Assembly (NCBI GenBank): GCA_031367385.1
Contig: JANLPS010000388.1
Coordinates: 1-44,143 of the forward strand
Direction of reading: 5' to 3'
DNA: 44,143 bases
DNA from: Archangium sp.
GTDB taxonomy: Bacteria > Myxococcota > Myxococcia > Myxococcales > Myxococcaceae
Shown piece by piece: positions 1-33,081 of this stretch. The position numbers were made by a program, and so were the translations under genes. The notes below the pieces were generated by a model. That model saw nothing but the letters and a program-made list of their open reading frames with translations, was not told where the DNA came from and did no database searches. Numbering within the stretch: the first letter of the stretch is position 1; each line of letters starts with the position of its first letter.

Positions 1-1
1 C

Positions 2-493
2 GTCATCTGCCCGATGATCAGCTCACGTGAAGAGGCCCAGCGGCTGGTCGCGTATACGAGGTACCCACCGCAGGGCATTCGCAGCAACGGGCCGGCTCGC
101 GCGCTGTTGTACGGAGGCGCTGACTATGTGGCGCAGGCGAATTCGACCGTGGTCGCCTTCGCGATGATCGAGACGGCCGCCGCGGTTGATGCCATCGACG
201 ACATCTTGTCGGTTGAAGGCCTCGAGGCCATTTACGTCGGCCCTTCAGACCTCTCGCTGGCCCTCGGGTGCAAGCCGGCGTTCGACGTGCTCGAGCCTGC
301 CGCGGCGCAGGCAGTCGAGCATATTTTGGCTCGCGCCAAGGCGCACAAGATCGTCGCCGGCATTCACAACGGCAGCCCCGAGGCCGCGCGAGAACGCATC
401 AACAAGGGGTTTCAGTTCGTCACCGCCGCGTCTGACACCCGGCTGATCGCCAGCGGAGCCCAGCACGCAGTCGCGAAGGCACGCTCGAAATAA
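2..493 (+). CDS. HpcH/HpaI aldolase family protein, 5'-truncated by window
   Basis: Frame open from base 2 (VICPMI...). Motifs RYPPQGIRS, AMIET, YVGPSDLS are typical of HpcH/HpaI class II aldolases. Confidence 0.85.
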   Translation, partial: VICPMISSREEAQRLVAYTRYPPQGIRSNGPARALLYGGADYVAQANSTVVAFAMIETAAAVDAIDDILSVEGLEAIYVGPSDLSLALGCKPAFDVLEPAAAQAVEHILARAKAHKIVAGIHNGSPEAARERINKGFQFVTAASDTRLIASGAQHAVAKARSK

Positions 494-510
494 GAAGAGG
501 TTCGCAGGCG

Positions 511-978
511 CTAGATGCCCCGTACCGAGGTCACCACCAGCCCAGAAACGGCTGCGAACGCCACCAGCCCCCAACAGGCAAAAGCACACACCGCGAAGAA
601 CGGTACCACCGGCGCCCCTGGCTCGACCCGGTGTCGTGTCGAGGCCAACACTGCCGTCAGGGGCAGCCCAAGGAGCGCGAAGTTCTCCTTGATGTCGAAG
701 AGGTTCGAGGCCCAGGGCGCATCGCGATCGAGCCCCACTCCGCGCACCATCACTCTGAAGTGCGGGTACATCAGAAGCCCGACGACAAAGGTCACCGCGA
801 ACAACACGGTGACGACCAGCGACTGCACGCGAATCATTCGCAGCGACGAACGGCGGCCGCGCAGCACCGAGAGCATCGCCAGCGCCAAGTGCGTGGTCGA
901 GCCAAGCAGGGCCAAGCCCGAAAGCGCATGCAGCACGAGCAGCCACCGCGCGACTTCACTCAAAAAGACCGGCGTCAT
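511..978 (-). CDS. Hypothetical integral membrane protein (~4 TM)
   Basis: 155 aa with four hydrophobic segments; start lies 10 bp after the regulator stop, so probably co-transcribed. Confidence 0.75.
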   Translation of the reverse strand: MTPVFLSEVARWLLVLHALSGLALLGSTTHLALAMLSVLRGRRSSLRMIRVQSLVVTVLFAVTFVVGLLMYPHFRVMVRGVGLDRDAPWASNLFDIKENFALLGLPLTAVLASTRHRVEPGAPVVPFFAVCAFACWGLVAFAAVSGLVVTSVRGI

Positions 979-987
979 GTGCGATGG

Positions 988-2550
988 CTACTCCGTTGGA
1001 GGGCCATAGACCAACTCGTGTTTCTTGAGCTTGAGCAACAGGTTCGACCGGCTGATGCCCAGCTCGCGCGCGAGGAGGCTCTTGTTGCCCTCGGTTCGCT
1101 TCAGACCCTCATCCAACATGGTCTTCTCAAGCAGGTCGATCGCGTCGTTCATTCGAGCCGGGAGGGGCTGCGGCAGCAGGTGGCCAGCGAAAGCGTGTGG
1201 TGTGCCCGCACGCTCGGCGGGGCCGGAGATGCGACTCGAGAGCAGCTGCTCGCCGATGACCTCCTCGTGGCCTCCCAGCACCAACAGCCGTTCAACTTCG
1301 TTCTCGAGCTCGCGAATGTTGCCTGGCCAACGGTAGGCCGCGAGCAGCTGGAGCGCTCTGGCCGAGAGCCGATGAGCCACGTCATTCGGGCGCCGCAGCC
1401 GCGCCATGAAGTGGGCAATCAGCAACGGCACATCATCGGGTCGCTCCCGCAGCGCCGGCACGTGAATCTGAACCACGTTGACCCGATAGAAGAGGTCTTC
1501 TCGAAACGTCTTCTGCGCCACCATCTGAGCAAGATCTCGGTGCGTCGCCGCGATCACCCGAACGTCGACCTGCGTGACCTCTGAGCCACCCACCGGGGTG
1601 AAGCTGCCTTCTTGCAGCACCCGCAGGAGCTTGGTCTGCAGCGCGAGCGACATCTCGGCGATCTCATCGAGAAAGAGCGTGCCGGTGTCAGCAGCCTCAA
1701 ACAACCCGCGCTGCCGAACGACGGCGTCGGTGAAGGCGCCTCTCTCGTGCCCGAACAACGCGCTCTCGAGCAGGTTGTCATTGAGCGCCGAGCAGTTCTG
1801 CACCACGAAGGGCTTGTCGCGCCGGCTGCCGCTGAAGTGTATCGACCGGGCCACAAGCTCCTTGCCCGTACCTGATTCACCGCTGATCAACACCGACGCG
1901 TCAGAGTGCGCGAGCTTCTCGACCCGCTCGAGCACCTGCCGCAGCGCCTCCGAAGTGCCGATCATGCGAGGTGCGTCGAGCGGCCCACCGCGGGGCGCCT
2001 TGGCGTGGAGCGACCTCGACACCCGGCGCTTGGCCTCTTCAGCGCTGGCGATCTGCAGCGCTCCAAGTTCGAGCAGGTCTTTCAGGCGGTCGAGCGCCGC
2101 GGAGTCGAGCATCGGCAGTCTATCGACCGCTCGCTCGAGGTCGGTGGCCCCTGGGCTCATCAACGTGGCGATCTTCGCGGGGAGATCATCTCGCCGAGGC
2201 GCCTTCGGCCGCGAGAACCCTTGTACGAAGAGCGTGCCCCGGTGTTCGCCGTCGACGATGATCGGCGCACCGATCATCACAAAGCCCAAGTGACACTCGT
2301 GTACCTTCGTGCCAGCGCCTCGCGTCAGGTCGTGAAGCTCCTTCACCGAAGCGGCGCAGCGAGAAAACCCCTCGCCTGAAAACAACGAGAGCCGGCAGAA
2401 ATCGTTCGGTGGTGGCGTGATCTGCTTTTGCGCCCAGTCCGACACTGCCCCGTCTGGAGTGGTGATTGAAAGCTCGGCGCGCCACCACTTTCGAATCAGG
2501 TCGCGCAACGTGAAGATCGCGTGAATACGTTCAGGTTGCTCGAAACCCAT
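988..2550 (-). CDS. Sigma54-dependent enhancer-binding protein with N-terminal PocR-like sensor and C-terminal Fis HTH
   Basis: Walker A GESGTGKE, GAFTDA loop, Walker B LFLDEI, FREDLFYR, WPGNIREL, C-terminal HTH (NKSLLARELGISRSNL). N-terminus has the PocR-type Cys pattern FC..C..CHLG..API. Confidence 0.9.
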   Translation of the reverse strand: MGFEQPERIHAIFTLRDLIRKWWRAELSITTPDGAVSDWAQKQITPPPNDFCRLSLFSGEGFSRCAASVKELHDLTRGAGTKVHECHLGFVMIGAPIIVDGEHRGTLFVQGFSRPKAPRRDDLPAKIATLMSPGATDLERAVDRLPMLDSAALDRLKDLLELGALQIASAEEAKRRVSRSLHAKAPRGGPLDAPRMIGTSEALRQVLERVEKLAHSDASVLISGESGTGKELVARSIHFSGSRRDKPFVVQNCSALNDNLLESALFGHERGAFTDAVVRQRGLFEAADTGTLFLDEIAEMSLALQTKLLRVLQEGSFTPVGGSEVTQVDVRVIAATHRDLAQMVAQKTFREDLFYRVNVVQIHVPALRERPDDVPLLIAHFMARLRRPNDVAHRLSARALQLLAAYRWPGNIRELENEVERLLVLGGHEEVIGEQLLSSRISGPAERAGTPHAFAGHLLPQPLPARMNDAIDLLEKTMLDEGLKRTEGNKSLLARELGISRSNLLLKLKKHELVYGPPTE

Positions 2551-2612
2551 TTTGGCCAGCGCATTTCAGTGCACCTCACGCGCCAAACCGTCGTCGCTCG
2601 AGCGAGCCGCGA

Positions 2613-2635
2613 CTCTGTAATTTGTCTCTACAGAG
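2613..2635. promoter_or_regulatory. Palindromic enhancer (UAS) candidate CTCTGTA-N9-TACAGAG
   Basis: Perfect 7-bp inverted repeat. Its core TGTAATTTGTCTCTACAG (2616-2633) recurs at 5500-5517 with 15/18 identity. Confidence 0.65.
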
Positions 2636-2761
2636 AAACCGCTTGGTTTCGGTCAATCGGTGTTTCAACACCCCACTTGAAGCCTGCCGATGCGTGAGGC
2701 GATTCGGCCCAGCTCGTTTCGATTGGCGCGGTTGCGCCGAGCCCACCGACCCTTATGGCGA

Positions 2762-2777
2762 TGGCATGACACGCGCA
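2762..2777 (+). promoter_or_regulatory. Sigma54 -24/-12 promoter candidate TGGCATGACACGCGCA
   Basis: GG and GC at canonical spacing, 146 bp downstream of the UAS core, next to a divergent sigma54 activator. Confidence 0.65.
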
Positions 2778-2791
2778 CGCTGAAACGCCCT

Positions 2792-2878
2792 ATGAAGCGC
2801 CGCATCGTGAAGATGGTTTTTGGTTTCACCCCTGCTTCATCTGAGCGAGATGCCCAGTGCTCGAGACGCTGGCGATGA
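2792..2878 (+). CDS. Small 28-aa peptide MKRRIVKMVFGFTPASSERDAQCSRRWR, candidate radical SAM substrate/precursor
   Basis: ATG just downstream of the sigma54 promoter; its TGA overlaps the next ATG (ATGA at 2875-2878); shares RIxxxxFGxxPxSS with the 4019 peptide. Confidence 0.5.
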   Translation: MKRRIVKMVFGFTPASSERDAQCSRRWR

Positions 2879-3237
2879 CTCGCTCGCTGTCGGTGGCGCT
2901 CGGTGCGTTGGGGTTCGTCGCGGGCGAGTTCGCGGTCACGGCGACCACCGCGCCGACTCTGTGGTACCAGCCCCTCGAGCGACGATTCTGCTTCGACCGC
3001 TACGCCGCCGCCCCCGCGATGGACTTTTACGGGCGGTTGGCCGCGGCGAGCCTCGCCGGGCTCGTCTTCTTTGGCGTGGGTCTGGTGCTCTTTCGTCACC
3101 TGAGCGACGGCGCCGCACGGCTGTGGTCTCGAAGGCTCTCGGTGTGGCTCGGCTCAGGCCTCCTCGCGACCGCGGCGCTGCATGCGGCGTTGCTGATTCA
3201 CCGAGTGCCGGTGCCGCTCGAGTTGACGGCGCCATGA
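2875..3237 (+). CDS. Hypothetical membrane protein (~3 TM; LWYxPLERR and MDFYGR loop)
   Basis: Hydrophobic 120-aa ORF with ATGA overlaps at both ends; alternative GTG start at 2857. Confidence 0.7.
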   Translation: MTRSLSVALGALGFVAGEFAVTATTAPTLWYQPLERRFCFDRYAAAPAMDFYGRLAAASLAGLVFFGVGLVLFRHLSDGAARLWSRRLSVWLGSGLLATAALHAALLIHRVPVPLELTAP

Positions 3238-4019
3238 CCGCCGTGCTGCTGCTTGCGCTTGCCTCGCAGGACTCCGGGCTCGAAGAGCTCGCCTCGAACG
3301 TCGGCGCCGTCTCTCACCCGCAGACCATCAGCGCCCTCGAAGCCTTCGTGGCCTCGCACCCCGGTGACCCGAACGTCGATCGCGCGCTGCTGCTCGAGGC
3401 GCAGCTGTACCGTGCCGATGGCGACGACGCGCACGCGCTTCAGGTGCTCAACCGAATTCTCGCGGCACCGGGGTTCTCCGCGTGGCGGCGCGATGCAGCG
3501 CTGGAGCGCGCAAGCCTCGACGTGGCCGCCTGGCGATTCGGCGCGGCGCTCTCGGCGTATGGTTGGCTCGCCCACGACCCCGATGAGCGGCGGCGATACC
3601 AGGCGCGCATGGGCGCGGCCGAGGCCCTCGCCATGCGAGCTCGCCTGTACCTGGGGTGCGCCATCTCATTCGCGTTGGTGGCCGTGGTGCTGTGGCGCCT
3701 GGCCAGGGCCCGTCGCGCGCTGTTGCCCCCGACTGAGGAGGTCACCTATGCGCTCCCGCTGGTCGTGCTGCTTGGCATCGCAGCGCTCTCTCAACCCGCC
3801 GCGGAGGCCCGCGCGGTGCTCACCCTCGCGGGTGGCGGCCTGGTGCTTCTCTGGGCCAACTCGTCTTTCTGGCGGCTTCGTCGGCCCCGCGGCCTGTTGC
3901 GCGTCGTCGAACCGGCCTTCGCAGCCGGTCAAGCGTTCGGTCTTTTGTACTGCGCAATCGTCTCGAACAACTTGTGGCATCGGTTGGTCGAGACCTTCGT
4001 CAATGGAGCTGAAGGCTGA
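3234..4019 (+). CDS. TPR-like helical domain plus ~4 C-terminal TM segments
   Basis: ATG at 3234 overlaps the upstream TGA. Short hydrophobic N-terminus, TPR-like helices (FVASHPGDPNVDRALLLEAQLY), then hydrophobic helices. Confidence 0.75.
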   Translation: MTAVLLLALASQDSGLEELASNVGAVSHPQTISALEAFVASHPGDPNVDRALLLEAQLYRADGDDAHALQVLNRILAAPGFSAWRRDAALERASLDVAAWRFGAALSAYGWLAHDPDERRRYQARMGAAEALAMRARLYLGCAISFALVAVVLWRLARARRALLPPTEEVTYALPLVVLLGIAALSQPAAEARAVLTLAGGGLVLLWANSSFWRLRRPRGLLRVVEPAFAAGQAFGLLYCAIVSNNLWHRLVETFVNGAEG

Positions 4020-4219
4020 TGGCGCGACGCGAACGGCCTCGAATTCTGTCGGTGCGCTTCGGGGTCAACCCCAACTCGAGCTCGCTGGGAGTCGACGTCA
4101 CCTTTCTGCTCTTCGGCGGAGTCACCGCGCTCGCGGCCAGCCTGGTGTTGTCGGCCATTCTGCGGTCGGTTCGGCGCGCGCCGTCAGTGGTCGGGCCTGA
4201 GGCCAAGGCTCCCGAATGA
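4019..4219 (+). CDS. 66-aa membrane-anchored peptide with RILSVRFGVNPNSSS motif, candidate radical SAM substrate
   Basis: Coupled on both sides (TGATG at 4017-4021, ATGA at 4216-4219); basic N-terminus, NPNSSS, one TM helix. Confidence 0.75.
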   Translation: MARRERPRILSVRFGVNPNSSSLGVDVTFLLFGGVTALAASLVLSAILRSVRRAPSVVGPEAKAPE

Positions 4220-5391
4220 GAATTCGCCCTGAAGCCTTCGGCGCGATCGTCGAGCTCGAGACCCCGCGCGCGCTGGTCTCCGTGAACCGCCCGATGGCGA
4301 CCCTGCTGGGCATGCGCGAGAGCCCACTGTGGCAGACGGCCCGTGAACACCTCAGCGCGCCGACCGAAGTTCACCTGGTGGTCTCCAAGCGCTGCAGCGC
4401 AGGGTGTAAGAGCTGCTACGTCGACGCGACGCCCAAGGGAGCGGCGTTGTCGTTCGCGCAGGCCAGGCAAGCGCTCGATCGACTCGCGGCCCACGGCGTT
4501 TTTCACGTCGCTCTTGGTGGCGGTGAGGCGCTCGACCTCGACTACCTCTTCGAGCTGGCCGCGTACGCTCGCAGCATCGGCATCTTGCCGAACCTGACGA
4601 CCGCGGGGTTGAGTCTCACCAGGGCCCAGGCCCAGAAGTGCACCGTGTTCGGGCAGATCAACGTCAGTGTCGACGGCGTGGGCGCGGCCTACCGTGCCGC
4701 CCGCGGCTTCGATGGCTTCGCCCGGGCCGAGCGCGCCCTCCGCTGGCTGCGTGAGACGAAGAAAGAGGTCGGTATCAACTGCGTCGTCTCGCGCAAATCA
4801 TTTCCCCACCTCGAGGCGGTCGCCGCGCTGGCGAAGCGGCTCAAGCTCAACGAGCTCGAGCTGCTCAGGTTCAAGCCCGCCGGCCGTGGCCAGGCGATGT
4901 TCGCTGAAGAAGACCTGACCCTCGATCAAGCGAAGCAAGTCTTCCCGCTCGCGCGACGGCTCCTGTTTCGACATCGCGTGCGGGTGAAGCTCGATTGCTC
5001 GTTTGCGCCGATGGTCTTTTGGCATCGGCCCGCACCGTGGGTCGCCCGGTTCTTCGGAGTGGTCGGCTGCGAGGGCGGCAACCTGCTCGCGTCAGTCATG
5101 CCCGATGGCACGCTGACCGGGTGCTCGTTTGGCGGCCCCGCCGAAGCCAGCATCTTCGACGCCTCGGCGACATCGAAGGCCTTCGACGAGGGCTTCACCG
5201 CGTTTCGAGACTACCCCTCACGCGCGCAGGAGCCCTGCCGCAGCTGCGAGTACCTCTCACTCTGCAAAGGAGGGTGCCGGGTGGTCGCCCAGGCCGGAGG
5301 TGATTGGTGGGCGCCCGACCCTGGCTGCCCTCGGGTGGCCGCGCATCGGTCGTCGAGCTCCGCGGGCAGCACGCCGGCTGCCGGCCGGTGA
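4216..5391 (+). CDS. Radical SAM/SPASM domain protein (PqqE/MftC-like)
   Basis: CxxxCxxC (CSAGCKSC), GGGE, VSVDG, and a full 7-Cys SPASM motif Cx12Gx4C...Cx2Cx5Cx3C-x16-C. Confidence 0.92.
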   Translation: MRIRPEAFGAIVELETPRALVSVNRPMATLLGMRESPLWQTAREHLSAPTEVHLVVSKRCSAGCKSCYVDATPKGAALSFAQARQALDRLAAHGVFHVALGGGEALDLDYLFELAAYARSIGILPNLTTAGLSLTRAQAQKCTVFGQINVSVDGVGAAYRAARGFDGFARAERALRWLRETKKEVGINCVVSRKSFPHLEAVAALAKRLKLNELELLRFKPAGRGQAMFAEEDLTLDQAKQVFPLARRLLFRHRVRVKLDCSFAPMVFWHRPAPWVARFFGVVGCEGGNLLASVMPDGTLTGCSFGGPAEASIFDASATSKAFDEGFTAFRDYPSRAQEPCRSCEYLSLCKGGCRVVAQAGGDWWAPDPGCPRVAAHRSSSSAGSTPAAGR

Positions 5392-5499
5392 GCGCCCTCA
5401 GTACAGGGCCGCACATGGCAACACAGGCTGCGCGCGCGTGACGGTTCATCTCTGCTTCAGGTGGCCAAGGGTGATGCGTCTTTCGCCCCAGTCGGGGTT

Positions 5500-5517
5500 T
5501 GTAATTCGTCGGTACAG
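5500..5517. promoter_or_regulatory. Second enhancer (UAS) candidate TGTAATTCGTCGGTACAG
   Basis: TGTA-N9-TACA, 15/18 identical to 2616-2633, 145 bp upstream of the promoter at 5645. Confidence 0.65.
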
Positions 5518-5644
5518 TCGCGTTGGTGCATTTCGGGGCATAGGCATTTCAGCGCCGCGATGGAGATCAGTCGGTGCCGGTTGAATCGGCGCGCTTTGGG
5601 CTGAAAAGGCGGTGTGCCCACATCGTTTTCACCTGATCACTGCG

Positions 5645-5660
5645 TGGCACGTCGCGCGCA
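5645..5660 (+). promoter_or_regulatory. Sigma54 -24/-12 promoter candidate TGGCACGTCGCGCGCA
   Basis: Consensus TGGCACG -24 box with GC at -12; same CGCGCA -12 variant as at 2772-2777. Confidence 0.7.
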
Positions 5661-5673
5661 CAGCAACCGGTGC

Positions 5674-6921
5674 ATGAAATTGCGCCGTCTCCCCCTGTGC
5701 GTCGCCCTCATGGTCGTTTCATGTGGCGTCACCGAAACAACCATCGATTCTTCAACCGACGATGGGGCTTCAGACCTCGCTGGGCTCTCGCAGTTCGTGA
5801 CGGTCTCGCCTGCGAACCCGTCGATCAAAACAAGCGAGTCGCTCGACCTGAGCGTCACGCTCGGCGGCAAAAGCAGCTCGAAGCTGGTGTGGGCGTTGAG
5901 CATCACGGGCCTGCCTACCGGCGTGACCGGCGTGTTTTCACCGACCTCGGCCAAGTCAGGTCAGACCGCCCGGTTGACCCTCACCGCCGCGGCGTCATCA
6001 GCGGTCGGCGTCAGCAAGTTCGTCGTGCACAGCACCAACGGCGCGAGCGAGCACATCGACACCGTGACGCTCTCGGTGCTCAAGGGCGGAGGCGGAGGCA
6101 GCGGCGGAGGCGTCGGGCCCACGGGCGGCACGGTCGACCTCCTTCACTTTGCCGTAACCGGTGACACCCGACCGCCCTCGTGTGGAGACACCGCGCACTA
6201 CCCGTCGCCAATCATCGACGCGATCGCCGACGCCGCTGCGGCACGCCACGCGCAGTTCGGTCTCGACCTCGGAGATCACATGTACGTCTGCAACAACGAT
6301 CTCTCGATGGCGCAGCAGCACATGAACCTCTACCTGCAGTCGGTTCACCGCTTTCCTGGCACGTGGTTCATGACGATGGGCAACCACGAGTGTTGGCACG
6401 GCCCCTGTCTGCTCGAGTCGACCAACGCGAACTACGTGGCGTACATGGCGGCGCTCCAACCGATTTCGCCGAAGCCCTACTACAGCTTCAACGTCGAGAC
6501 CTCGCTTGGGCGGGTGACCTTCGTTCAGATCGCCGACAACGCGTGGGATCAGCGACAGGCCGTTTGGCTCGAGCAGACCCTGGCCGACGCTGACCTGCAC
6601 GCGAAGTACACCATCGTGAGCCGGCATCACCCGAGTGGTGACTCGTCGGTCTCGACGAACCCCGAGAACCTCGCGATCGTTCACAAGCACAAGTTCGCGC
6701 TGTTTTTGACCGGGCACAGCCACTCGTACAAGCACGCGACCACCGACAACGGGCGCGACATGGTGCTCGGCATCGGGGGTGCTCCGCTGCTGGCGGCGGG
6801 CTCCGACTTCAACGGGTACGCGATGGTTGATCAGCAGGCCAATGGCCAGCTTCGCGTCACCGTCTTCAACATCAACGGTGATCTGCAGCGCGACCAATGG
6901 TCGGTGGGGCCGAACCAATGA
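5674..6921 (+). CDS. Lipoprotein: Ig-like domain plus calcineurin-like metallophosphoesterase
   Basis: Start MKLRRLPL with lipobox VVSC; motifs TGDTR, LGDH, GNHE, HHP, GHSH; Gly linker after a beta-rich domain. Confidence 0.85.
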   Translation: MKLRRLPLCVALMVVSCGVTETTIDSSTDDGASDLAGLSQFVTVSPANPSIKTSESLDLSVTLGGKSSSKLVWALSITGLPTGVTGVFSPTSAKSGQTARLTLTAAASSAVGVSKFVVHSTNGASEHIDTVTLSVLKGGGGGSGGGVGPTGGTVDLLHFAVTGDTRPPSCGDTAHYPSPIIDAIADAAAARHAQFGLDLGDHMYVCNNDLSMAQQHMNLYLQSVHRFPGTWFMTMGNHECWHGPCLLESTNANYVAYMAALQPISPKPYYSFNVETSLGRVTFVQIADNAWDQRQAVWLEQTLADADLHAKYTIVSRHHPSGDSSVSTNPENLAIVHKHKFALFLTGHSHSYKHATTDNGRDMVLGIGGAPLLAAGSDFNGYAMVDQQANGQLRVTVFNINGDLQRDQWSVGPNQ

Positions 6922-8147
6922 GCCTTCGAACTGTGTCTGTCGGTGTCATTCTCGCAGTCTGGGCCGCTGCGTGCGGCGTCGAAACGAACGACCCTGGTGA
7001 AGTGGCCGACCAGACCACCGCCGACGCCCAGCTGTCAGTCAGCTTGAGCCTGAACCCGAGCGCGGCCACCGTGACCGAGGGCGGTTCATCGTCATCGACC
7101 GTCACGATGAAAGGCACCGGCACCTGGGCTTTGGCGATCTCATCGCTCCCGGCGGGAGTCACCGCCAGGTTCTCGGCTGCGACGGTCAGCAGCTCGGCGC
7201 CCAGCACGCTCACGTTTTCTACGGCCTCGAGCGCGGCGGCGGGAAAGGCCCCCTTCACCATCACCGCGACCTCGGGCACGAAGAGTCGCAGCGCCAGCGG
7301 GTCAATCACCATCACGGCCGCCACAGCCGACGCCGGCACCGGAGGAGGCGGTGGAGGCAACACGAGCGTCAAGCGCGTGCTCTTCGATGGGGCGCACAAG
7401 CAGGTCGCCGGCAACGCCGATTGGATTCTCGACACCCACTTCCCCTCGCCGCAGCCTGCCACCCCGACCTCCGAGACCAGTTGGAACGGCGGCATCTCTG
7501 CGTGGGGCTTCGACCTGGTGAAGACCGGGCGCTACAGCGTCACCCAGCTCTCACCCGGAGCGAGTCTGAGCTTCGGTGGCGGTGGCGAGGGTGACCTGCA
7601 ACGGTTCGAGGTCTTCATCTCTGACGAGCCCGAGCTGAATTTCAGCAGCACCGAGCAGACGGCGCTGATGCAATTCGCGCACTCAGGTGGCGGCATCTTT
7701 TTGGCGAGCGATCACGCTGGAGCGACCCGATGCTCGACCTGCACGCAGGCCTGGCAAGTGATCAACTCCTTTCTCGTCACGGGCGCGGCTGCCAACGCGT
7801 TCGGCGTCAAGTGCGACGGCAACGACATCGGCACGGTCACCGGCACCGCCACTGATGCCCGATTCACCACCGGCCCTTTTGGCCAAGGCACGCAGCTCGC
7901 GTACCACGCCGGGTCATCGGTCTCGGCCACGGCCAATAATGCGTTCACGATCGTCTCGGCGGGTGCGCACGGGCTGATGGTGGGCTCCGAAATCGCAGGG
8001 GGAGGCCGCATCATCTTGCTCGGCGATTCGAGCCCACTCGAAGACGGCACCTGCCAATGCAGCGCCAAGATTCACAATGGGTGGGGTGAGGTCAATGACT
8101 CCACCCTCGTGCTCAACGCGACCGCCTGGCTGGCACACGACCAGTGA
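6918..8147 (+). CDS. Lipoprotein: Ig-like domain plus putative class I glutamine amidotransferase-like (DUF4350-like) domain
   Basis: ATGA overlap with the upstream gene; lipobox AAAC; VLFDGAHKQVAGNADW, GGGIFLASDH, GRIILLGDSS. Confidence 0.7.
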   Translation: MSLRTVSVGVILAVWAAACGVETNDPGEVADQTTADAQLSVSLSLNPSAATVTEGGSSSSTVTMKGTGTWALAISSLPAGVTARFSAATVSSSAPSTLTFSTASSAAAGKAPFTITATSGTKSRSASGSITITAATADAGTGGGGGGNTSVKRVLFDGAHKQVAGNADWILDTHFPSPQPATPTSETSWNGGISAWGFDLVKTGRYSVTQLSPGASLSFGGGGEGDLQRFEVFISDEPELNFSSTEQTALMQFAHSGGGIFLASDHAGATRCSTCTQAWQVINSFLVTGAAANAFGVKCDGNDIGTVTGTATDARFTTGPFGQGTQLAYHAGSSVSATANNAFTIVSAGAHGLMVGSEIAGGGRIILLGDSSPLEDGTCQCSAKIHNGWGEVNDSTLVLNATAWLAHDQ

Positions 8148-8170
8148 CCTCCAGGCGGGCGGAGGCCGGG

Positions 8171-8875
8171 TCAGCGAAAGTCGTAGCCGAACATCAGCAT
8201 CGGGTTGACCCCGAGCGATTGCCCGAGCCCGATGCTCTGCGACGCTCCGCCCGAGCCCCCTGACTGATTCACATACGCGGTGTTCGGCGCGTACATCAGG
8301 TTCAAGTCGACCGACATGGTGAACTGCCCGCGGCGCTCGTTGCTCGCGTTGCGCCGGCTGCCCGTACCGAAGCCGATCTTCGCGTTGAGCCCCGGCATGA
8401 AGCCCGACGCGGCGAAGGCACTCTGGCTGGCCCCCGAGCTCGAGCCACTGGCCATCGCGCCCTGGGTGACGCCGGCCCACCCGCCCCACCCCAGCTGCGG
8501 GCCACCCGCGACGAAGAAGTGATCACCCAGCGACAGCTCAGCGTTGACCCCGAAGAACCAGAACCCCGAGGCCGAGACAGAAATCGAGCCGCCGCTCGAG
8601 CTGGCCGTGCCTCCGAACCCGATGCCGGCCTGACGCCCGAGTCGCGCATAGGCATTGAACAGAGGGCTGACGGTCACGCCGATTCGGCCTTCAATCGCCC
8701 ACGCGAGCTGCGGCCCGGGAATGAAGGCGCCCAGACCCGTCGAGGCGCCCCAGCGAATGCCGAGCGCCGTCGCTGAAGGGGGCGCCGGGTCGGGGCTGAC
8801 AGCGGGAGCGGCGGTTTGAGCAAACGACGTCAAGGCAACCAGGCTGAACAAGAGCACTGCAGGGGCATGTCGCAT
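8171..8875 (-). CDS. Secreted protein, probable outer-membrane beta-barrel
   Basis: Sec signal (SFA/Q), alternating Gly/aromatic strands, C-terminal MFGYDFR. Confidence 0.7.
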   Translation of the reverse strand: MRHAPAVLLFSLVALTSFAQTAAPAVSPDPAPPSATALGIRWGASTGLGAFIPGPQLAWAIEGRIGVTVSPLFNAYARLGRQAGIGFGGTASSSGGSISVSASGFWFFGVNAELSLGDHFFVAGGPQLGWGGWAGVTQGAMASGSSSGASQSAFAASGFMPGLNAKIGFGTGSRRNASNERRGQFTMSVDLNLMYAPNTAYVNQSGGSGGASQSIGLGQSLGVNPMLMFGYDFR

Positions 8876-9050
8876 GGGGGCAAATCTCCAGTGAGGGGTG
8901 AGCGCGCACTGACGGGGCGGGCCAAAACATATTCACCAGCGATGCCCGTGACGAACTTTCATCTGGCACGAACGCCTCTGTGCGCATGTCGGGCAGCTGC
9001 ACACGTCACCAAGACTCCGCGTATTTGCTTTGAGAATTCAGACCGCTCGG

Positions 9051-9066
9051 TGGCCGCTGAATTGCT
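9051..9066 (+). promoter_or_regulatory. Sigma54 promoter candidate TGGCCGCTGAATTGCT
   Basis: TGGC-N7-TTGCT with canonical spacing, 37 bp before the ATG at 9103. Confidence 0.5.
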
Positions 9067-9102
9067 TCCTGCTGCCGCTCCCCCCCACGACCGAGACTCC
9101 TC

Positions 9103-10488
9103 ATGACGCGGTACGCGACACCCATCGCCTTTCTGCTGACCCTCATTGCCTGCGGTTCTCGAGAATGTGCGCTGACCGACCCTGCGTCATGCGCTGCTCC
9201 GCTGGTGTGCGAGGCGGTACAAGGCAAGACCACCGGCGCCTGCTACCCGCCGGTCACGCTCAAGGGCAAGGTCTTCGACCTCTCGACCGCGAGTGCCATC
9301 TCGGGGGCCGAGGTCATCGCCACCGACGAGGGCGGCGCTCCTGCAGCCGCGCTCACTAAGACCGGCACCGACGGTACCTTTAGCCTGCGCGTGCCCTCGA
9401 CCCGCAGCGATGACAAGGGCACCTTCGTCGCCAGGCGCGTGCTGCTGCGCTCGCAAGCCAAGAACTACGTGCCATTTCCTTCGGGGGTTCGGGTGGCGTT
9501 GCCAATCGACACCAGCGCCGCGACCCACGCCAAAGACACCGACCCGTATCTACTCGAGTCGACCGCGACCTCGATTGGGCTCGCCCCAGTCGCGGCGGCC
9601 GCGCAGAACCTGCCTTCGGTGAGCGGCACGGTAGAGGTGGCTGCGGGTGGTGACTCCGTCTTGTTGGCGCTCGAGAACGCAACCCTGGGGCGAACGACCC
9701 TCTCGTCGACTGACGGCAGCTTCGTTTTCTTCAATGTGCCTGCGGGTGACTACGTCATCTCGGCTTTTCGCAAGAACCAGAATTATACGCCTGTGACCGT
9801 GAGCGTCGCGAGCGCAGACCTGAGCGGCGTGTCGCTGAAGAAGGCAACGACTGCGACCGCCACGCTGAGCGGCTCGGTGCAGCTCGTCGCGGGTGCCAAC
9901 GGCGCGGGCACCAGCGTCGTTTTGGGCCTCGCCAGCACCTACCTCGAGGCCCTGGGTCGCGCAGACACCGTCCCCGGCCTCAGAGCCCCCGAGGCCGGCA
10001 CGGCGCCGACGGTCACCGGGAGCTGGAGCATCACCGGCATCCCCGACGGCAAGTACGTCGTGCTGGCGGCCTTCGAGAACGACGGCAACATTCGCGACCC
10101 TGACCCCGGCATCTCGGGCACCCAGCTTCAACGCATCACGGTGGCGGGCGGCGCAATCACTCAGGGCTCGACGTCACCCTCATTCAAGGTGACTGGAGCG
10201 GTCGACCTGGTGAGCCCCGGCAAAGAGGGGGTCGAAGAAGTCAGCGCGACCCCTACCTTCACCTGGGGCTCGTACTCGAATGCCGACGGCTATCAACTCA
10301 AGGTCTTCGACACGCTGGGCGAGCAGCTCTGGTCGAAAGACATCGCTGACAAAGGCACGGTCTCGACTGTCTACGCCGGGCCGGCGCTCAAGGCCGGGTA
10401 CACTTACCAGTGGCGCCTGACCGCCTTTCGCCGCCTCGCACCGACCAGCGCGACCGAAGAGCTTCGCGGCCTCTTCGTCGTCAAGTAG
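9103..10488 (+). CDS. Lipoprotein with carboxypeptidase-regulatory-like beta-sandwich domains
   Basis: Lipobox LIAC, Cys-rich N-terminus, repeated 'GxV...TxxDGxF' modules, FN3-like C-terminus. Confidence 0.75.
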   Translation: MTRYATPIAFLLTLIACGSRECALTDPASCAAPLVCEAVQGKTTGACYPPVTLKGKVFDLSTASAISGAEVIATDEGGAPAAALTKTGTDGTFSLRVPSTRSDDKGTFVARRVLLRSQAKNYVPFPSGVRVALPIDTSAATHAKDTDPYLLESTATSIGLAPVAAAAQNLPSVSGTVEVAAGGDSVLLALENATLGRTTLSSTDGSFVFFNVPAGDYVISAFRKNQNYTPVTVSVASADLSGVSLKKATTATATLSGSVQLVAGANGAGTSVVLGLASTYLEALGRADTVPGLRAPEAGTAPTVTGSWSITGIPDGKYVVLAAFENDGNIRDPDPGISGTQLQRITVAGGAITQGSTSPSFKVTGAVDLVSPGKEGVEEVSATPTFTWGSYSNADGYQLKVFDTLGEQLWSKDIADKGTVSTVYAGPALKAGYTYQWRLTAFRRLAPTSATEELRGLFVVK

Positions 10489-10568
10489 CCCGTGGGCGTG
10501 CGAGCGCCACTTGCCTATGAACTCGCGAGTCGCCGAGGGTGTGGTTGTCTTGGCTCGAAACCGCACCC

Positions 10569-11996
10569 ATGCTCTTCCCCACGGTCGACTACGGCCTGTT
10601 TTTTCTGCTCGTCTTCGCGGCCTCGTGGGGTCTGCGACACTGGCTGCGCGCGCACCACGGGTTTCTGCTCGCGGCGAGCTATTCGTTCTACGCGTTTTGT
10701 GACTGGCGCTCGCTGCCGTTGCTGGTCGGGCTGTCGGTCTTCGCCGCGCTGGTGGCCCGATCACTTCAGCGACTGACGCGCCCAAAGCTGCGAAGAGGGC
10801 TGGTCTGGGTGGGCGTGTCAGTCGCTCTCGGCACGCTCGCCGGCTTGAAGTACCTCGGCTTGCTGGTCGCCTTCGCCTTGGGCGCGCTCCAGGCGTTCGG
10901 GGTGACGCCCCCCCCCGTTCGACTGCCCGAAATCGGGCTGCCGGTGGGCATCTCGTTTTTCGTCTTTCATGCCATCTCGCTGATGGTCGATGCGTACCGT
11001 CGGCGAATTGCAGTGCCGGTGAGGCTGCTCGACGCGTTGCTGTACATGGCCTTCTTCCCCCAGCTGGTGGCCGGCCCGATTCTCAGGGCGAGCACGTTTC
11101 TCTCTCAGCTGAGCATCGCCCCAGACCCCCGCCGCATCGAGGCCTCTCGCGCGATGGGGCTGATCGTCTGGGGGCTGGTGAAAAAAGTGCTCATCGCCAG
11201 CTTTCTGGCAACCCACGTCGTCGACCCGGTCTTCGAGTCGCCAACGCTGCACGGAGGCCTGGGAGCGCTGCTCGCGATCTACGGCTACGCCGGGCAAATT
11301 TTCTGCGACTTCTCGGGCTACACCGACATCGCCGTCGGCTCGGCGCTGCTGTTGGGGTACCGGTTTCCCGAGAACTTTTGGGCGCCCGGGCTGGCTGACA
11401 GCCCGCAAGACTTCTGGCGACGGTGGCACCTCTCGCTGTCGACGTGGCTGCGTGACTACCTCTTCATTTCACTGGGCGGTTCGCGGCGAGGCAGCGCTCG
11501 AACGCTGCTCAACCTCGCGGTGACGATGGTGCTCGGCGGCCTGTGGCACGGCGCTGCGTTGACCTTCGTGCTCTGGGGCGCGCTGCACGGCGCGGGGTTG
11601 ATCGCGCACCGGCTGTGGGCGGCTTCGTCGCTGGGCCCGATTCAACGCCTCAGGGCGTGGAGGCCCTGGCGAATCATCTCGGTGGTCGCGACTTTTCACT
11701 TCGTCTGTCTCGGCTGGGTCTTGTTTCGCTCGACCTCAGCCTCGGCGGCGCTCGAGCTTCTTGAGGCGCTGGCACAGCCCTGGGTGACCGGGCCGTGGCT
11801 CAGCCCCGCCGTGCTCATCGCGGTCAGCGCCGGAGTGCTCAGCCAGCTCGTGCCACCGGGGCGCCTGGGCCGGGTGCAGGCCTTCTTCGAGCGAATTCCG
11901 CTCCCCGCGCAGGGCGTGCTGGTGGCGCTGGCCATTCTCGGGCTCGAGGCGCTGGCCCCCAGGGGCATCGCACCCTTCATCTACTTTCGATTCTAA
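10569..11996 (+). CDS. MBOAT family O-acyltransferase (AlgI/PatA-like)
   Basis: MLFPT start; LPVGISFFVF, FFPQLVAGPI, DFSGYTDIA, FWRRWHLSLSTWLRDYL, GLWHGA, C-terminal FIYFRF. Confidence 0.92.
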   Translation: MLFPTVDYGLFFLLVFAASWGLRHWLRAHHGFLLAASYSFYAFCDWRSLPLLVGLSVFAALVARSLQRLTRPKLRRGLVWVGVSVALGTLAGLKYLGLLVAFALGALQAFGVTPPPVRLPEIGLPVGISFFVFHAISLMVDAYRRRIAVPVRLLDALLYMAFFPQLVAGPILRASTFLSQLSIAPDPRRIEASRAMGLIVWGLVKKVLIASFLATHVVDPVFESPTLHGGLGALLAIYGYAGQIFCDFSGYTDIAVGSALLLGYRFPENFWAPGLADSPQDFWRRWHLSLSTWLRDYLFISLGGSRRGSARTLLNLAVTMVLGGLWHGAALTFVLWGALHGAGLIAHRLWAASSLGPIQRLRAWRPWRIISVVATFHFVCLGWVLFRSTSASAALELLEALAQPWVTGPWLSPAVLIAVSAGVLSQLVPPGRLGRVQAFFERIPLPAQGVLVALAILGLEALAPRGIAPFIYFRF

Positions 11997-12017
11997 GCAA
12001 AGGCGACCACACCGCAC

Positions 12018-13175
12018 GTGACGCTCAGACCGACCGAGAAGCCCGACGAGGCGCCGCAGAGTGCGGGCGATATCGCGAGCGCGCTGCATGACTACACCGT
12101 CACGTTGGGCGGCCAGCAGACCCGTGCCGAGGCTCGGCCGTATCGCGTCACCGAAGTCGCCTGGGTGCTCGGCGTCTTCGCCCTGGTGATGGGGCTGCTC
12201 GACGCCGATGGGCTCGTCTCTTGGGCCAGGAGAATGGACGCCGGGCGCGCTCAAGCGGGCTGGCTTCGCGTGTTGACGCCACTCCAAACGTTCGACGGTG
12301 CGCTCGGGCTGACGGCGCCTCGGCGAGCGCTCCAGCTTTCGGCAGATCGCCTCGCCCGACGGCTCGGCGAATCGGAGGACCCGCTCTTCGTCGAAGCCTG
12401 GCGCGCTCCATCAGCGCCCTCGATGCCGGCGCCGATGCTCACCGAGCCAGCGGCGGCCCCCGCGGCCCCCGCGGCCCCCGTGATCGCGCAAGCGGCCGAC
12501 GCGCCGGCCCGACCGACAGGCGCCACGGTGCTGCTGGTGGGCGACTCGCTGTTGGCGGGCAGCCTGAGCAGCGCCATCGGTCGAACCCTCGCGACCGACT
12601 CGCGCTTTCGCGTCGTGCAAGCCCTTCAGAGCGCGACAGGGCTGAGCCGAGCCGACGTCTTCGACTGGATGACCGTGGCGCCCGCGCTGGTCGAGCGCGA
12701 ACAACCCCGCTTCGTCGTCTGTTCATTCGGGGCAAATGACGCGGTCGCGATCGAGCAAAACGGCGCCCTGCTCGACTTTGGAGAAAGCGAATGGAGAGCG
12801 GCGTATCGCACGCGCGTGCGTCAGATGATGCTCACGCTCGCAAGCAAGGGGACTGCGGTGCTGTGGCTCGGGTTGCCGCCGATGCGCGACAAGCGCCTCA
12901 ATGAGCGAGCGGCGGCGCTGAACCGATTGTTCGCCGCGACCGCCAGGGGGGTGCCGGGGGTCGAGTACCTCGAGCTCAACATGCTCGTCTCAGGCGCTGA
13001 TGGAGACTTCGCGACCTTCGGCACCGACGCCTCGGGCCGCTTCATTCGCATGCGGCTCGACGATGGCGTGCACTACTCACCCGCAGGGGCTCGGCTCGTG
13101 TCGAGGTGGATTGTCGACTGGTTGCGCGAGCGGTACCGGGTGCTCGGCGCCGGGCCGCATGCCCCACGGCCTTGA
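12018..13175 (+). CDS. SGNH/GDSL-family protein (DUF459-like), membrane-anchored
   Basis: VGDSL, TGLSRADVFDW, FGANDA, DGVHY; one N-terminal TM; follows the MBOAT gene. Confidence 0.85.
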   Translation: MTLRPTEKPDEAPQSAGDIASALHDYTVTLGGQQTRAEARPYRVTEVAWVLGVFALVMGLLDADGLVSWARRMDAGRAQAGWLRVLTPLQTFDGALGLTAPRRALQLSADRLARRLGESEDPLFVEAWRAPSAPSMPAPMLTEPAAAPAAPAAPVIAQAADAPARPTGATVLLVGDSLLAGSLSSAIGRTLATDSRFRVVQALQSATGLSRADVFDWMTVAPALVEREQPRFVVCSFGANDAVAIEQNGALLDFGESEWRAAYRTRVRQMMLTLASKGTAVLWLGLPPMRDKRLNERAAALNRLFAATARGVPGVEYLELNMLVSGADGDFATFGTDASGRFIRMRLDDGVHYSPAGARLVSRWIVDWLRERYRVLGAGPHAPRP

Positions 13176-15564: not shown

Positions 15565-16659
15565 TCACCTCGCCTGCGTGATGAAGCTGGTCACCCGTTG
15601 CCCGGGCACCAGCTGTGAGTGCCCCTCGAGCGCGATCACCACCTCGAGCACCTTGGTGTCGTTTTTCTCGGTAGGGTCATCGGTGCGAATGTTCTTTCGG
15701 CCGAAGCGACGACCAATCTCGGTGACTTGGCCGACGAACTTGGTCGCGCCGAAGGCGTCGGCGGTCACCCAAGACGGGTTGCCAACGGCTACCCGGGCGA
15801 TGTCGCGCTCATCGACGTCCATTCGAACTCGCAGCTTCGAGGTGTCGCCCATCACCAACAACGGCTCAGTGCCGGTGAAGCTGTAGAGCTCACCTTCGCG
15901 CACCTTGACCTGCAGAATTTCGCCGTCAATTGGAGCCCGAATGACCAACCGATCGACGGTCGCCTGGGCCTGGAGCACCCGCGCCTCAGCCGCGATCACC
16001 CTCGCCCGCTGAAACGAGATGTCTTCGAGCCGCGAGCCCGCTTCAGCGGCGCGAACTCGGGCTTCGGTCACCTTGAGATTCGCCTGCTCCGTTTGCGCCT
16101 GACGGCGGGCGCGATCGAGCTCGTCTTGAGTGGCGGCACCCGATTTCGCGAGCTGTTCGGTGCGGGCGGCGACGCCGAGGGCCAGCTCGGCCTTGGCCTT
16201 GGCCGCCGAAGCTTCAGCCAGCACGGCGTCGCGATCTTCGACGCGCAGGCCCCTCAAGGTGCGGGCCAGGTTGGCCTTCTCGCCGGCGAGGTCGGCTTCG
16301 GCGGCCTTGAGCGCCGCGCCCTCGACGCCCGAGGCCAGCTGAACCACCAGGTCTCCCGCCTTGACCTTCGCGCCCTCGGCGACGAGCACCTTCTCGACCA
16401 CTGCCGAGACCTGCGCGGCCACCCGCGTCTCTCGCTGCGCGGGCTCGACGACGCCGTTGCCTGCCACCACCTGGCCCTGGTCGAGCACCGGGCCCTTCAC
16501 ATCGGCGCCGCCCACCCGCGAAACCGCCTCGCGTTCGGCTGTGGCAGCGTCTTTGCTCACCGGTGCCGTCACCGGCGCGGCGACCGCCGTTCGCACGATT
16601 TGAAAACCACAAGTGCCCAGGAGCACGAAGAACACAACGGCCGGGAGTCTCTTTTTCAT
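15565..16659 (-). CDS. HlyD/membrane-fusion periplasmic adaptor
   Basis: GNGVVEP, VLVAEGAKVKAGD, coiled coil, IRAPIDGEIL, DVDERDIARV; alternative TTG start at 16677. Confidence 0.9.
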   Translation of the reverse strand: MKKRLPAVVFFVLLGTCGFQIVRTAVAAPVTAPVSKDAATAEREAVSRVGGADVKGPVLDQGQVVAGNGVVEPAQRETRVAAQVSAVVEKVLVAEGAKVKAGDLVVQLASGVEGAALKAAEADLAGEKANLARTLRGLRVEDRDAVLAEASAAKAKAELALGVAARTEQLAKSGAATQDELDRARRQAQTEQANLKVTEARVRAAEAGSRLEDISFQRARVIAAEARVLQAQATVDRLVIRAPIDGEILQVKVREGELYSFTGTEPLLVMGDTSKLRVRMDVDERDIARVAVGNPSWVTADAFGATKFVGQVTEIGRRFGRKNIRTDDPTEKNDTKVLEVVIALEGHSQLVPGQRVTSFITQAR

Positions 16660-16673
16660 GGTCGTTTCTCTTT

Positions 16674-17375
16674 TCAAACCAGACCGGCATTCGCGGGGGG
16701 CGGCACGATCAAGCCGTCTTCGATGAACACCATTCGGTCAGCGAGGTGAAAAATTCGGTTGTCGTGGGTCACGACGATGACGGTGTGGCCACGCTCACTC
16801 GAGAGGCTCTTGAGCAACTGCGTGACCGCCATGCCCGACTCGGCGTCGAGGCTCGCGGTGGGTTCGTCAGCCAAGATGAGCGGAGGCCGCCCAGCCACCG
16901 CCCGCGCGACTGACACCCGCTGCCGCTGACCACCCGACAGATCTTGCGGCAGGCTCTTGAGCTTGGCGCTGAGCCCCACCGCCGAGAGCACCTCTCTGGC
17001 TTCTGCCAAAGCGGCCTTTCGGGTGTACCCGCGCAGCTCGAGCGGCAGCGCGACGTTCTGCTCTGCGTTGAGCGCCGGCATCAGGTTGTGGCCCTGAAAA
17101 ATGAAGCCGATGTATTCGAGGCGAAGCCTCGGCAAGTCACGCTCGGGGCGGCCGTGCAGCGGCTGACCGAACAAGAAGCCCTGCCCTGCCGTCGGGTTGA
17201 GCACGCAGCCCAAAATCGACAGCAGCGTCGTCTTGCCACTGCCAGAGGGGCCGACGAGCATCATAAACTCGCCCGCGCCCACCGTCAGGTCGATGCCCTT
17301 GAGCGCCTGAAAAGTGAGCGCTCCTTCGCCGTACACCTTGGTCAGGGCCTTCAGCTCGACCGCTGGTGCGCTCAC
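16674..17375 (-). CDS. ABC transporter ATP-binding protein (LolD/DevA-like)
   Basis: GPSGSGKT, LSGGQRQR, ILADEPT, VTHD. Confidence 0.95.
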   Translation of the reverse strand: MSAPAVELKALTKVYGEGALTFQALKGIDLTVGAGEFMMLVGPSGSGKTTLLSILGCVLNPTAGQGFLFGQPLHGRPERDLPRLRLEYIGFIFQGHNLMPALNAEQNVALPLELRGYTRKAALAEAREVLSAVGLSAKLKSLPQDLSGGQRQRVSVARAVAGRPPLILADEPTASLDAESGMAVTQLLKSLSSERGHTVIVVTHDNRIFHLADRMVFIEDGLIVPPPANAGLV

Positions 17376-33006: not shown

Positions 33007-33081
33007 GCGCTGGCGTGTAGCACAGGCCCCGCGAATCGAATCGGCGTTCGCCAGCGGCGAAAGCCCAACCGTTCTCATGCC

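Follow-up and report, generated by a model that had tools for sequence, protein, structure and literature searches.

A radical SAM/SPASM enzyme paired with a membrane-tethered peptide in Archangium, other Myxococcota and metagenomes

The locus and its conserved enzyme-peptide pair

The stretch analysed here (the window) comprises 44,143 nt of contig JANLPS010000388.1 from Archangium sp. (assembly GCA_031367385.1). It carries a cassette encoding a radical S-adenosylmethionine (rSAM) enzyme with a SPASM domain and, directly upstream, a 66-residue peptide with a single transmembrane (TM) helix. Judged by sequence comparison the two are a conserved gene pair, and co-occurrence, a model of their complex and coupled variation indicate that a dedicated rSAM/SPASM enzyme very probably acts on the membrane-tethered peptide. 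The cassette and its surroundings contain the following features.

511-978, minus strand: 155-residue four-helix membrane protein with invariant H16, YPxxR and FDxKE, situated behind the sigma54 activator gene
988-2550, minus strand: sigma54-dependent activator with a PocR sensory domain (Pfam PF10114, PF00158, PF02954), divergent from the cassette
2613-2635, unstranded: inverted repeat (7-bp arms, 9-bp spacer) some 130-150 bp upstream of the sigma54-like site
2762-2777, plus strand: sigma54-like -24/-12 element, 14 nt upstream of the ATG of the 28-residue open reading frame (ORF)
2792-2878, plus strand: 28-residue ORF with leader-like RIVKMVFGF and TPASS
2875-3237, plus strand: 120-residue protein with three TM segments (3-TM protein) and a WYxPxxR loop
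3234-4019, plus strand: 261-residue tetratricopeptide repeat (TPR) protein with a likely signal peptide and C-terminal membrane helices
4019-4219, plus strand: 66-residue one-helix peptide consisting of leader strand I9-F14, core, TM helix 27-45 and basic tail
4216-5391, plus strand: 391-residue rSAM/SPASM enzyme
5645-5660, plus strand: a further sigma54-like element of that form, 13 nt upstream of the phosphoesterase ATG
5674-6921, plus strand: likely exported calcineurin-like metallophosphoesterase (PF00149)
6918-8147, plus strand: 409-residue likely exported protein, ATGA overlap with the phosphoesterase gene, no family above cut-off

A first-pass annotation had described the five ORFs from the 28-residue ORF to the enzyme as a chain with overlapping stop and start codons, and both coordinates and overlaps were confirmed on the window sequence. 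Hydropathy reproduced the TM segments it had assigned to the 3-TM protein (three) and the peptide (one), but found only two above threshold, rather than four, in the TPR protein, whose metagenome counterparts have three to four. The annotation had overlooked the four-helix and phosphoesterase genes, and its view of the five genes as one unit was not borne out: the 28-residue ORF is private to this genome and the 3-TM protein belongs to a separate pair. Scans with Pfam and NCBIfam placed none of the four non-enzyme ORFs of the operon in a family above cut-off and, as had been noted, revealed no pqq, mft, sulfatase, peptidase or exporter gene in the operon. The opposite strand carries a MacAB-TolC-type set about 10 kb off, and an M28 peptidase lies at about 35 kb; nothing links either to the cassette.

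Both domain models recognised the enzyme above their cut-offs (Pfam Radical_SAM PF04055, 44.4 against 29.5, with CxxxCxxC at C60/C64/C67; SPASM model TIGR04085, 37.5 against 27), in keeping with the identity first proposed. The cysteine-rich SPASM region was likewise present, with eight cysteines rather than the seven first counted: C261, C285, C303, C341, C344, C350, C354 and C371 are invariant in 46/46 aligned enzymes. C189 is Phe or Thr in 4/46 and is also not invariant in the metagenome set. The enzyme scored below the curated cut-offs of MftC (TIGR03962, 101.6/265), NirJ (100.5/515), AhbC (82.2/650), AhbD (71.3/500), PqqE (TIGR02109, 78.6/381) and anSME (TIGR03942, 26.4/349.45) and by this standard is none of them, as the annotation had held; metagenome orthologues reached 150-159 with the MftC model (cut-off 265). 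The family carries no Pfam or NCBIfam name, and the searches found no curated family for it. PADLOC gave only generic viperin-type scores. The enzyme was unmatched in plasmids and, by close patterns, in viral contigs. In its structural model (predicted local distance difference test, pLDDT, 94.7) the N-terminus forms a compact sheet (strands 3-6, 9-14 and 19-24, helix 25-30) followed by the barrel. This sheet resembles the recognition element (RRE) of systems whose peptides are ribosomally synthesised and post-translationally modified (RiPP systems), and the NCBIfam and Pfam scans gave no RRE family match. The nearest solved folds are SuiB, anSME, SkfB, CteB and PqqE, with EpeE among weaker matches, and PqqE is the best sequence match in the PDB. 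One copy of the enzyme gene (L031:2900-3680) is split by an ATPase-encoding, insertion-sequence-like segment.

The peptide core reads G15-x-N17-P-N-S20-S-S-[LI]-G, and the TM helix begins about 10 residues past N17. Positions 17-22 hold neither Cys nor aromatic residues; no Cys fell there in the 418 canonical peptides or in the 16 variants that could be aligned. Within the core, Cys turned up only at position 16, which is variable (Y, V, L, M, F and others). A Ser-to-Cys form was absent from the 436 distinct peptides and from loci found with a DNA pattern permitting Cys codons. The family is large: clustering at 90% leaves 2948 proteins, and at 50% identity there are 430 clusters, of which at least two are repetitive false matches. 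No Pfam model matched the peptide, and its Atlas matches were all unnamed. It is indeed unlike MftA and PqqA, having no C-terminal VY and no ExxxY motif. Several loci hold two peptide genes.

The two genes were sought from either side. An enzyme-first scan yielded 35 loci, titled Myxococcota or deltaproteobacterial metagenome-assembled genomes, and the peptide lay directly upstream of the enzyme in 31; of the other four, three begin within the enzyme gene and one has a gene interrupted by what looks like a mobile element. The peptide-first search of 300 Myxococcota genomes found real matches in 24, with the enzyme directly downstream at 25/25 loci; G077 (E 8.9e-4, TM part only, without the enzyme) was left out of this count. 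Searching the same 300 genomes with the enzyme recovered 25 carriers, the 25th having its peptide cut by the contig end. The distribution is patchy (2/124 genomes of the window's own family), and since the genomes are kin the co-occurrence is not a statistical test. In metagenomes, a DNA pattern of the peptide alone matched 123 loci with GC from 0.28 to 0.74, duplicates (L089, L113, L122, L131) being left out of the counts. Among those of at least 8 kb, 21/23 carried the enzyme family at 38-50% identity to the window enzyme. The link between homologues and such peptides that had been expected holds in Myxococcota and metagenomes. At three loci (L083, L127, L141) the peptide gene comes last in a set of TRAP-T (TatT/DctP) transporter genes, and the retrieved DNA shows no enzyme.

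The modelling of the complex that had been suggested gave an ipSAE of 0.91 for the enzyme with the 66-residue peptide and 0.00 for the best of three controls; that mark was reached by 116/157 solved complexes and 2/215 mismatched pairs. The runs share at least 98% of contacts, with a partner pLDDT of at least 79. The enzyme is predicted to bind the peptide with the leader on its RRE-like sheet and the core in its barrel. In the model, leader residues 9-14 pair as an added strand with enzyme strand 19-24, an RRE-type docking, and residues 15-31 touch the barrel. Contacts fall at enzyme positions 97-102, 126-128, 184-188, 213-218, 256-264 and 304-305 (barrel and SPASM), and the predicted interface is large, taking in TM and tail residues of the peptide. 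CteB, NisB and LynD are described as sharing this leader-on-beta3 geometry (PMC6231123), so part of the score may be likeness to solved RRE complexes. Taken together, we consider it likely that the peptide is the enzyme's substrate. Of the original peptide-modification reading, the dedicated enzyme for a tethered peptide is supported; one fixed unit of five genes is not.

Ser20 and the chemistry proposed for the peptide core

Natural variants single out one residue of the core. The set of 436 distinct peptides includes 418 of canonical sequence. Differences in the 16 variants that aligned fall at N17, P18, N19, S21 and S22, and Ser20 is retained in all of them and, on inspection by eye, in variant P0364; a single fragment defied placement. 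Ten variants form a conserved GSASGG subfamily (P0354-P0365), which is free of Asn and keeps Ser20, and the same holds for an HSG subfamily. At locus L027, where a GSASGG peptide gene (5801-6001) precedes the enzyme gene (6001-7149), the enzyme is changed at H53, H97, N126, E215 and S304, residues identical in the other 45 enzymes and all five within the predicted interface. Elsewhere (G115) the enzyme beside an EAHSGA core stops short of the SPASM cysteines. These patterns lead us to favour Ser20, by a modest degree, as the modification site, and the GSASGG subfamily with its altered pocket may represent a second chemistry.

We prefer to read the system as one in which a peptide that stays in the membrane has its core oxidatively modified, and rate this somewhat better than an even guess; that the product is an aldehyde is a narrower and distinctly more tentative proposal. 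The 5'-deoxyadenosyl radical would take a hydrogen from Ser20, most likely from C-beta, and two fully ligated auxiliary clusters would take up the electron, giving formylglycine (an aldehyde) as in anSME/AtsB. AtsB is reported to convert Ser into formylglycine by C-beta hydrogen abstraction (PMC10114670), and anSME, SuiB and PqqE to have fully ligated auxiliary clusters, suggested in anSME to be the oxidant of the radical intermediate (PMC6231123). Net oxidation is favoured by the eight auxiliary Cys. Because the core is without Cys or aromatic residues, sacti/ranthipeptide and cyclophane chemistry are excluded, and the Asn-free variants favour formylglycine over a hydroxyl ether.

The product likely stays in the inner membrane, as is suggested by the lack of a linked leader protease or exporter: none recurs in neighbourhood clusters or Pfam scans, a single M48 peptidase occurring near L078 only. 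The modified helix would then work in an inner-membrane module with the TPR-membrane protein, and the module would serve the exported metallophosphoesterase by anchoring it, activating it, or supplying metal or product. K/R counts are 0.13 for the 12 residues that precede the TM helix, 3.5 for the 12 that follow and 3.9 for the leader. This charge pattern suggests a cytoplasmic C-terminus of the peptide, with which the modified core would lie outside, near the TPR domain and the phosphoesterase.

Several observations weigh against this reading. The score with the anSME family is far under its cut-off, the core is without the sulfatase motif, [CS]xPxR, and Ser304 follows the third auxiliary Cys where anSME has its catalytic Asp. 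Relatives of the Avap1 type (see below) are without the auxiliary Cys set. Basic residues at both ends speak for neither orientation of the TM helix. Some peptides (L100, L127) lack an enzyme in the DNA retrieved around them. Because NPNSSS or variants containing Ser20 served as search seeds, the searches were biased toward Ser20, and the coupled pocket change concerns one enzyme sequence, from a genome that also has a canonical copy (L034). Finally, one large subclade of about 20 loci has neither the TPR protein nor the phosphoesterase nearby, and some loci adjoin HupE/UreJ, TonB, ModABC-like or TRAP genes instead, so a phosphoesterase role is not universal.

Among other explanations the one that survives best, unlikely as we judge it, concerns the product: a cross-link in which a Ser hydroxyl would form an ether to a nearby Asn carbon (N17-x-x-S20 or N19-x-x-S22). 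This would be the oxygen version of the Asn-Cys thioether that NxxcB reportedly makes in a short core, and would also be a -2 Da oxidation fitting the fully ligated clusters. Both Asn are invariant in the 418 canonical peptides, the top fold match SuiB is itself a cross-linker, and TqqB, described as forming a Thr-Gln ether from the Thr hydroxyl, is a precedent (PMC10114670). It is the Asn-free GSASGG (10 sequences) and HSG subfamilies, with Ser20 in place, that tell against the ether, although an altered pocket could yield another product.

Slightly less probable again is redox-neutral or backbone chemistry, that is, epimerisation to D-Ser, or C-alpha oxidation with cleavage that would shed the basic leader and leave a new N-terminal group on the helix. 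Leader removal by the enzyme itself would fit the absence of a linked protease, the charge pattern suits an N-out helix after leader loss, and EpeE is among the weaker fold matches; yet there is no spare invariant Cys to return a hydrogen (C189 varies), and the eight auxiliary Cys again favour net oxidation. On a par with this stands the possibility that the peptide is a membrane anchor or plug for the enzyme and that the substrate is another protein (the phosphoesterase or the TPR protein) or a small molecule. The size of the predicted interface with its TM and tail residues would suit an anchor, as would a peptide more invariant than most RiPP precursors and the description of Avap1 and Avap2 as accessory subunits of a larger protein (PMC11564622). 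However, the prediction puts the core, and not just the leader, in the barrel, changes in core and pocket go together, a second partner shared by every locus is lacking, and in phages a tag of the same register heads dissimilar proteins (see below), as for a portable modification site. A role of the enzyme in making heme or a cofactor (NirJ, AhbC/AhbD or MftC-like), with membrane proteins that bind heme, is very improbable, for although its best NCBIfam scores go to MftC, NirJ and AhbC/D and the four-helix protein has conserved His residues and cytochrome chains among its mid-rank fold matches, those scores are all far below cut-off, no heme-pathway gene was found among the scanned neighbours, and the four-helix protein is absent from 11/25 enzyme-bearing genomes and has a fold Z of at most 14, typical of generic bundles.

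Partner genes, regulation and the 28-residue ORF

After enzyme and peptide, the TPR-membrane protein is the most widespread member of the cassette, being found in 10/35 enzyme-first and 18/25 peptide-first Myxococcota loci; its architecture also recurs in 20/23 metagenome loci of at least 8 kb, with a profile match (probability 96.7%) over the TPRs and the first TM segment. The metallophosphoesterase, whose gene in the window starts 283 bp downstream of the enzyme gene, was present in 7/10 TPR-bearing enzyme-first loci and 0/25 others. It was also present, often as a purple-acid-phosphatase-like protein, in 16/23 long metagenome loci, although nine of these 16 had seeded the search profile (Pfam named those independently). 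The Archangium genome holds four phosphoesterase matches in 7967 kb. A service role of the cassette for the phosphoesterase is a possibility that we regard as somewhat short of an even chance. Other recurring neighbours are HupE/UreJ, TonB receptors, ModABC-like transporters, TlpA-type redoxins and DUF2950; no sulfatase was found among scanned neighbours. In three loci (L074, L100, L088) the purple-acid-phosphatase-like proteins have an altered GNHD metal motif (GDND, GSND), and their genes lie between two peptide genes or after one, adjacent to a TlpA-type redoxin. Those of L074 and L100 also have a multi-TM C-terminal region.

The 3-TM and four-helix proteins are, to judge from their gene neighbourhoods, a two-gene pair of their own, normally tandem and found in varied contexts in Myxococcota. 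Enzyme-first loci contain them often (four-helix protein in 31/35, 3-TM protein in 30/35), and the genes occurred together in 12/15 regions centred on the four-helix gene (pair survey regions L372-L386). The four-helix gene occurs in 12 genomes without the rSAM enzyme and is missing from the 11/25 with it mentioned above, and the pair appears in 1/23 long metagenome loci. In the window it is split by the sigma54 activator gene. The four-helix model (pLDDT 96) gave only generic four-helix bundle matches and unnamed Atlas clusters. One genome (G233) has three copies of the four-helix gene, one of them adjoining a metallophosphoesterase gene without any rSAM.

The claim that the 28-residue ORF and the 66-residue peptide share a motif was upheld, since the likeness exceeds chance when scored with a matrix of 249 family motifs. 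With a genome background, 4-18 of the 15,868,052 six-frame windows of its own genome equalled or beat the ORF, and with a uniform one 8-93 did so; the ORF itself and the true peptide are included in these counts. Of 2000 local dinucleotide shuffles, 0-1 attained its score. The ORF retains an equivalent of Ser20 and is without both Asn, the third Ser and the TM helix. Its GC content at third codon positions is 0.61 versus 0.79-0.85 in neighbours, and it had no counterpart in 230 related loci. Most simply, the ORF would be a degenerate, soluble and decaying second copy of the peptide. A frameshift fusion of the ORF to the 3-TM gene was considered and rejected, as contigs from three runs, possibly the window's own source, match 2500-4147 without differences.

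The strict form of the sigma54-like element, a pattern chosen post hoc, has two occurrences in the genome, one before the 28-residue ORF and one before the phosphoesterase. Genome-wide, TGGCAY-N7-GC sites were followed 12-15 nt later by ATGAA in 11/224 cases, as opposed to 1/406 and 5/292 for wrong spacings. This enrichment after correctly spaced sites makes a near-leaderless start plausible, so the 28-residue ORF may be translated; the same spacing hints at near-leaderless sigma54 transcripts in the Archangium genome. None of 41 upstream regions from relatives carries the sigma54 site (0/41), which makes this regulation local, and the activator is not conserved next to relatives. In the window, the PocR-type activator is likely the regulator of the cassette. 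It may co-regulate cassette and phosphoesterase, and the inverted repeat at 2613-2635 is a possible site for it. Pho boxes were discarded: a crude scan allowing up to three mismatches found them in 3/41 upstream regions, compared with 4.8 in shuffles, and none in the window. L128 and L133 have plausible Pho boxes.

Further along, the window encodes an MBOAT O-acyltransferase followed by a DUF459/SGNH protein (10539-13175, plus strand), an AlgI/AlgJ-like acetylation pair. A 768-residue protein with long Pro/Ala-rich tandem repeats and without a Pfam match (13189-15495, minus strand) is preceded by an HlyD/ABC/FtsX/OEP efflux set at 15565-19848. A 1492-residue fusion of NAD-binding reductase, AMP-binding, carrier and acyltransferase parts and then an epimerase make up a lipid-synthesis module (27578-33078, minus strand), and three large ORFs of 427, 499 and 830 residues (34017-39418, minus strand) have no Pfam match at 1e-5. 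Rfam gave no match in positions 1-12000.

Phage and defence relatives and the closest known systems

The motif MKxRxGFVSNSSS, an N-terminal motif of phage proteins, was used as a search pattern and matched 153 stretches. An rSAM matching the enzyme profile was found at 42 of the first 80 tag loci, which overlap, or at about 32/61 contigs by hand count. The register of the tag matches that of the peptide (hydrophobic-basic-x-G-aromatic-x-x-N-S-S, with N-S-S fixed), and 164 distinct N-termini begin with the tag, on proteins that are otherwise unlike one another and often stand in arrays; 28 tag proteins had no Pfam family above cut-off. With a profile of 22 phage enzymes the window enzyme scored 65.8 bits, as against about 10 for two further SPASM enzymes from its genome, a partly circular comparison since the 22 were picked by likeness to the enzyme profile. 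Common motifs in the profile alignment are PN-T, KPxGR, D-x-x-x-AP and CSF. The related enzyme occurs in 173 cultured phage records, nine of them named for Escherichia; in one record it has no tagged neighbour, two tagged genes lying about 20 kb off. A tree from a quick, incomplete search, with a wrong-frame ORF as one outgroup, settled neither sisterhood of the phage and cellular enzymes nor the link to the defence relatives described below, and was not used. On the one hand, the phage proteins and their rSAM (phrog_7293) thus resemble the peptide system in tag register and related enzyme. On the other hand, the phage enzyme keeps only four auxiliary Cys and the tag sits on dissimilar proteins.

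A second relative is the pair Avap1 (rSAM) and Avap2 (DUF6375) of the KpAvs2 anti-phage operon, described in PMC11564622, which likewise combines a compact rSAM with a small protein of conserved N-terminus; what that account gives includes no chemistry (PMC11564622). Avap1/Avap2 differ in having no auxiliary Cys set, no TM helix, a defence context and another tag register. At three Myxococcota loci a DUF6375 protein beginning MKIWxxxGSEHSANL lies beside an rSAM that, compared with four rSAMs of the Archangium genome, matches the window enzyme best (58.9 versus at most 46.6 bits). In the Archangium genome PF19902 (DUF6375) had no match. One further locus (L395:592-2625, from G238) encodes a fusion of an rSAM with a DUF6375-like domain; the first residues of that domain look like an internal tag (VRVWQGFSANNSG), and the fusion may modify itself.

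These likenesses allow a broader, speculative scenario, which we hold to be doubtful. An ancient clade of compact-RRE rSAM enzymes would write a new modification on a portable beta-strand plus G-x-x-x-N-S-S tag, used in a bacterial membrane microprotein (a surface peptide-derived cofactor for phosphoester or metal acquisition), in arrays of large phages and, diverged, in Avap1/Avap2 defence. The 28-residue ORF would then be translated, and its soluble product would tune the enzyme as a decoy or a second substrate. Should the phage enzyme be related in this way, bacterial and phage systems might share one explanation.

Among characterised systems, MftA/B/C and PqqA/D/E give the enzyme its best curated scores, yet these are under cut-off and the window system has no mft or pqq genes. 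The enzyme's N-terminal R-x-E-x-F-G motif may be akin to MftB. The systems of TqqB and NxxcB are soluble, exported streptococcal RiPPs, and the NCBIfam scan showed no family match to the window enzyme; TqqB, as reported, is the example of rSAM chemistry on the hydroxyl of a short core (PMC10114670).

SuiB (PDB 5V1Q/5V1S/5V1T) is the best fold match (query TM-score 0.72-0.73), and SuiB/SuiA, CteB and SkfB have in common with the window enzyme the order of N-terminal RRE (in the window enzyme a predicted RRE-like sheet), rSAM and SPASM. According to PMC6231123 a linker Cys completes Aux I in SuiB, and C261 may do so here. Unlike these systems, that of the window has no Lys/Trp or Cys acceptor in the core, an RRE-like part of three strands and about one helix, a precursor with a TM helix, and no linked protease or exporter. 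The anSME/AtsB enzymes (TIGR03942; PDB 4K36-4K39) are alike in rSAM and SPASM domains and eight auxiliary Cys and are among the top fold matches; they are reported to oxidise Ser or Cys of a later-exported protein (PMC10114670). Here, by contrast, no sulfatase is nearby, the N-terminus is a predicted RRE-like sheet and the target is a 66-residue TM peptide with NPNSSS.

No description of an rSAM system with an NPNSSS or SNSSS tag, nor of one with a transmembrane precursor, with a metallophosphoesterase or in jumbo phages, was found in the literature searched, which covered few subscription journals and was judged mostly by title. The window contributes the genome-level profile, the conservation of Ser20 alone with the coupled pocket change, the separate 3-TM/four-helix pair and the degenerate soluble copy. 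Known rSAM/SPASM peptide chemistry consists, in the account of PMC10114670, mainly of thioether, C-C and ether links in soluble precursors and of sulfatase formylglycine. With nothing but Asn, Pro and Ser available in the core, either a new linkage or a familiar one in an unaccustomed setting is the probable product. An oxidised Ser, if true, would be an undescribed route to a reactive group on a membrane protein, and if the product stays in the membrane, RiPP logic would reach beyond secreted compounds to subunits of the membrane. The window holds a real and widespread rSAM-peptide system, which resembles RiPP maturases and anSME and stands outside all tested families.

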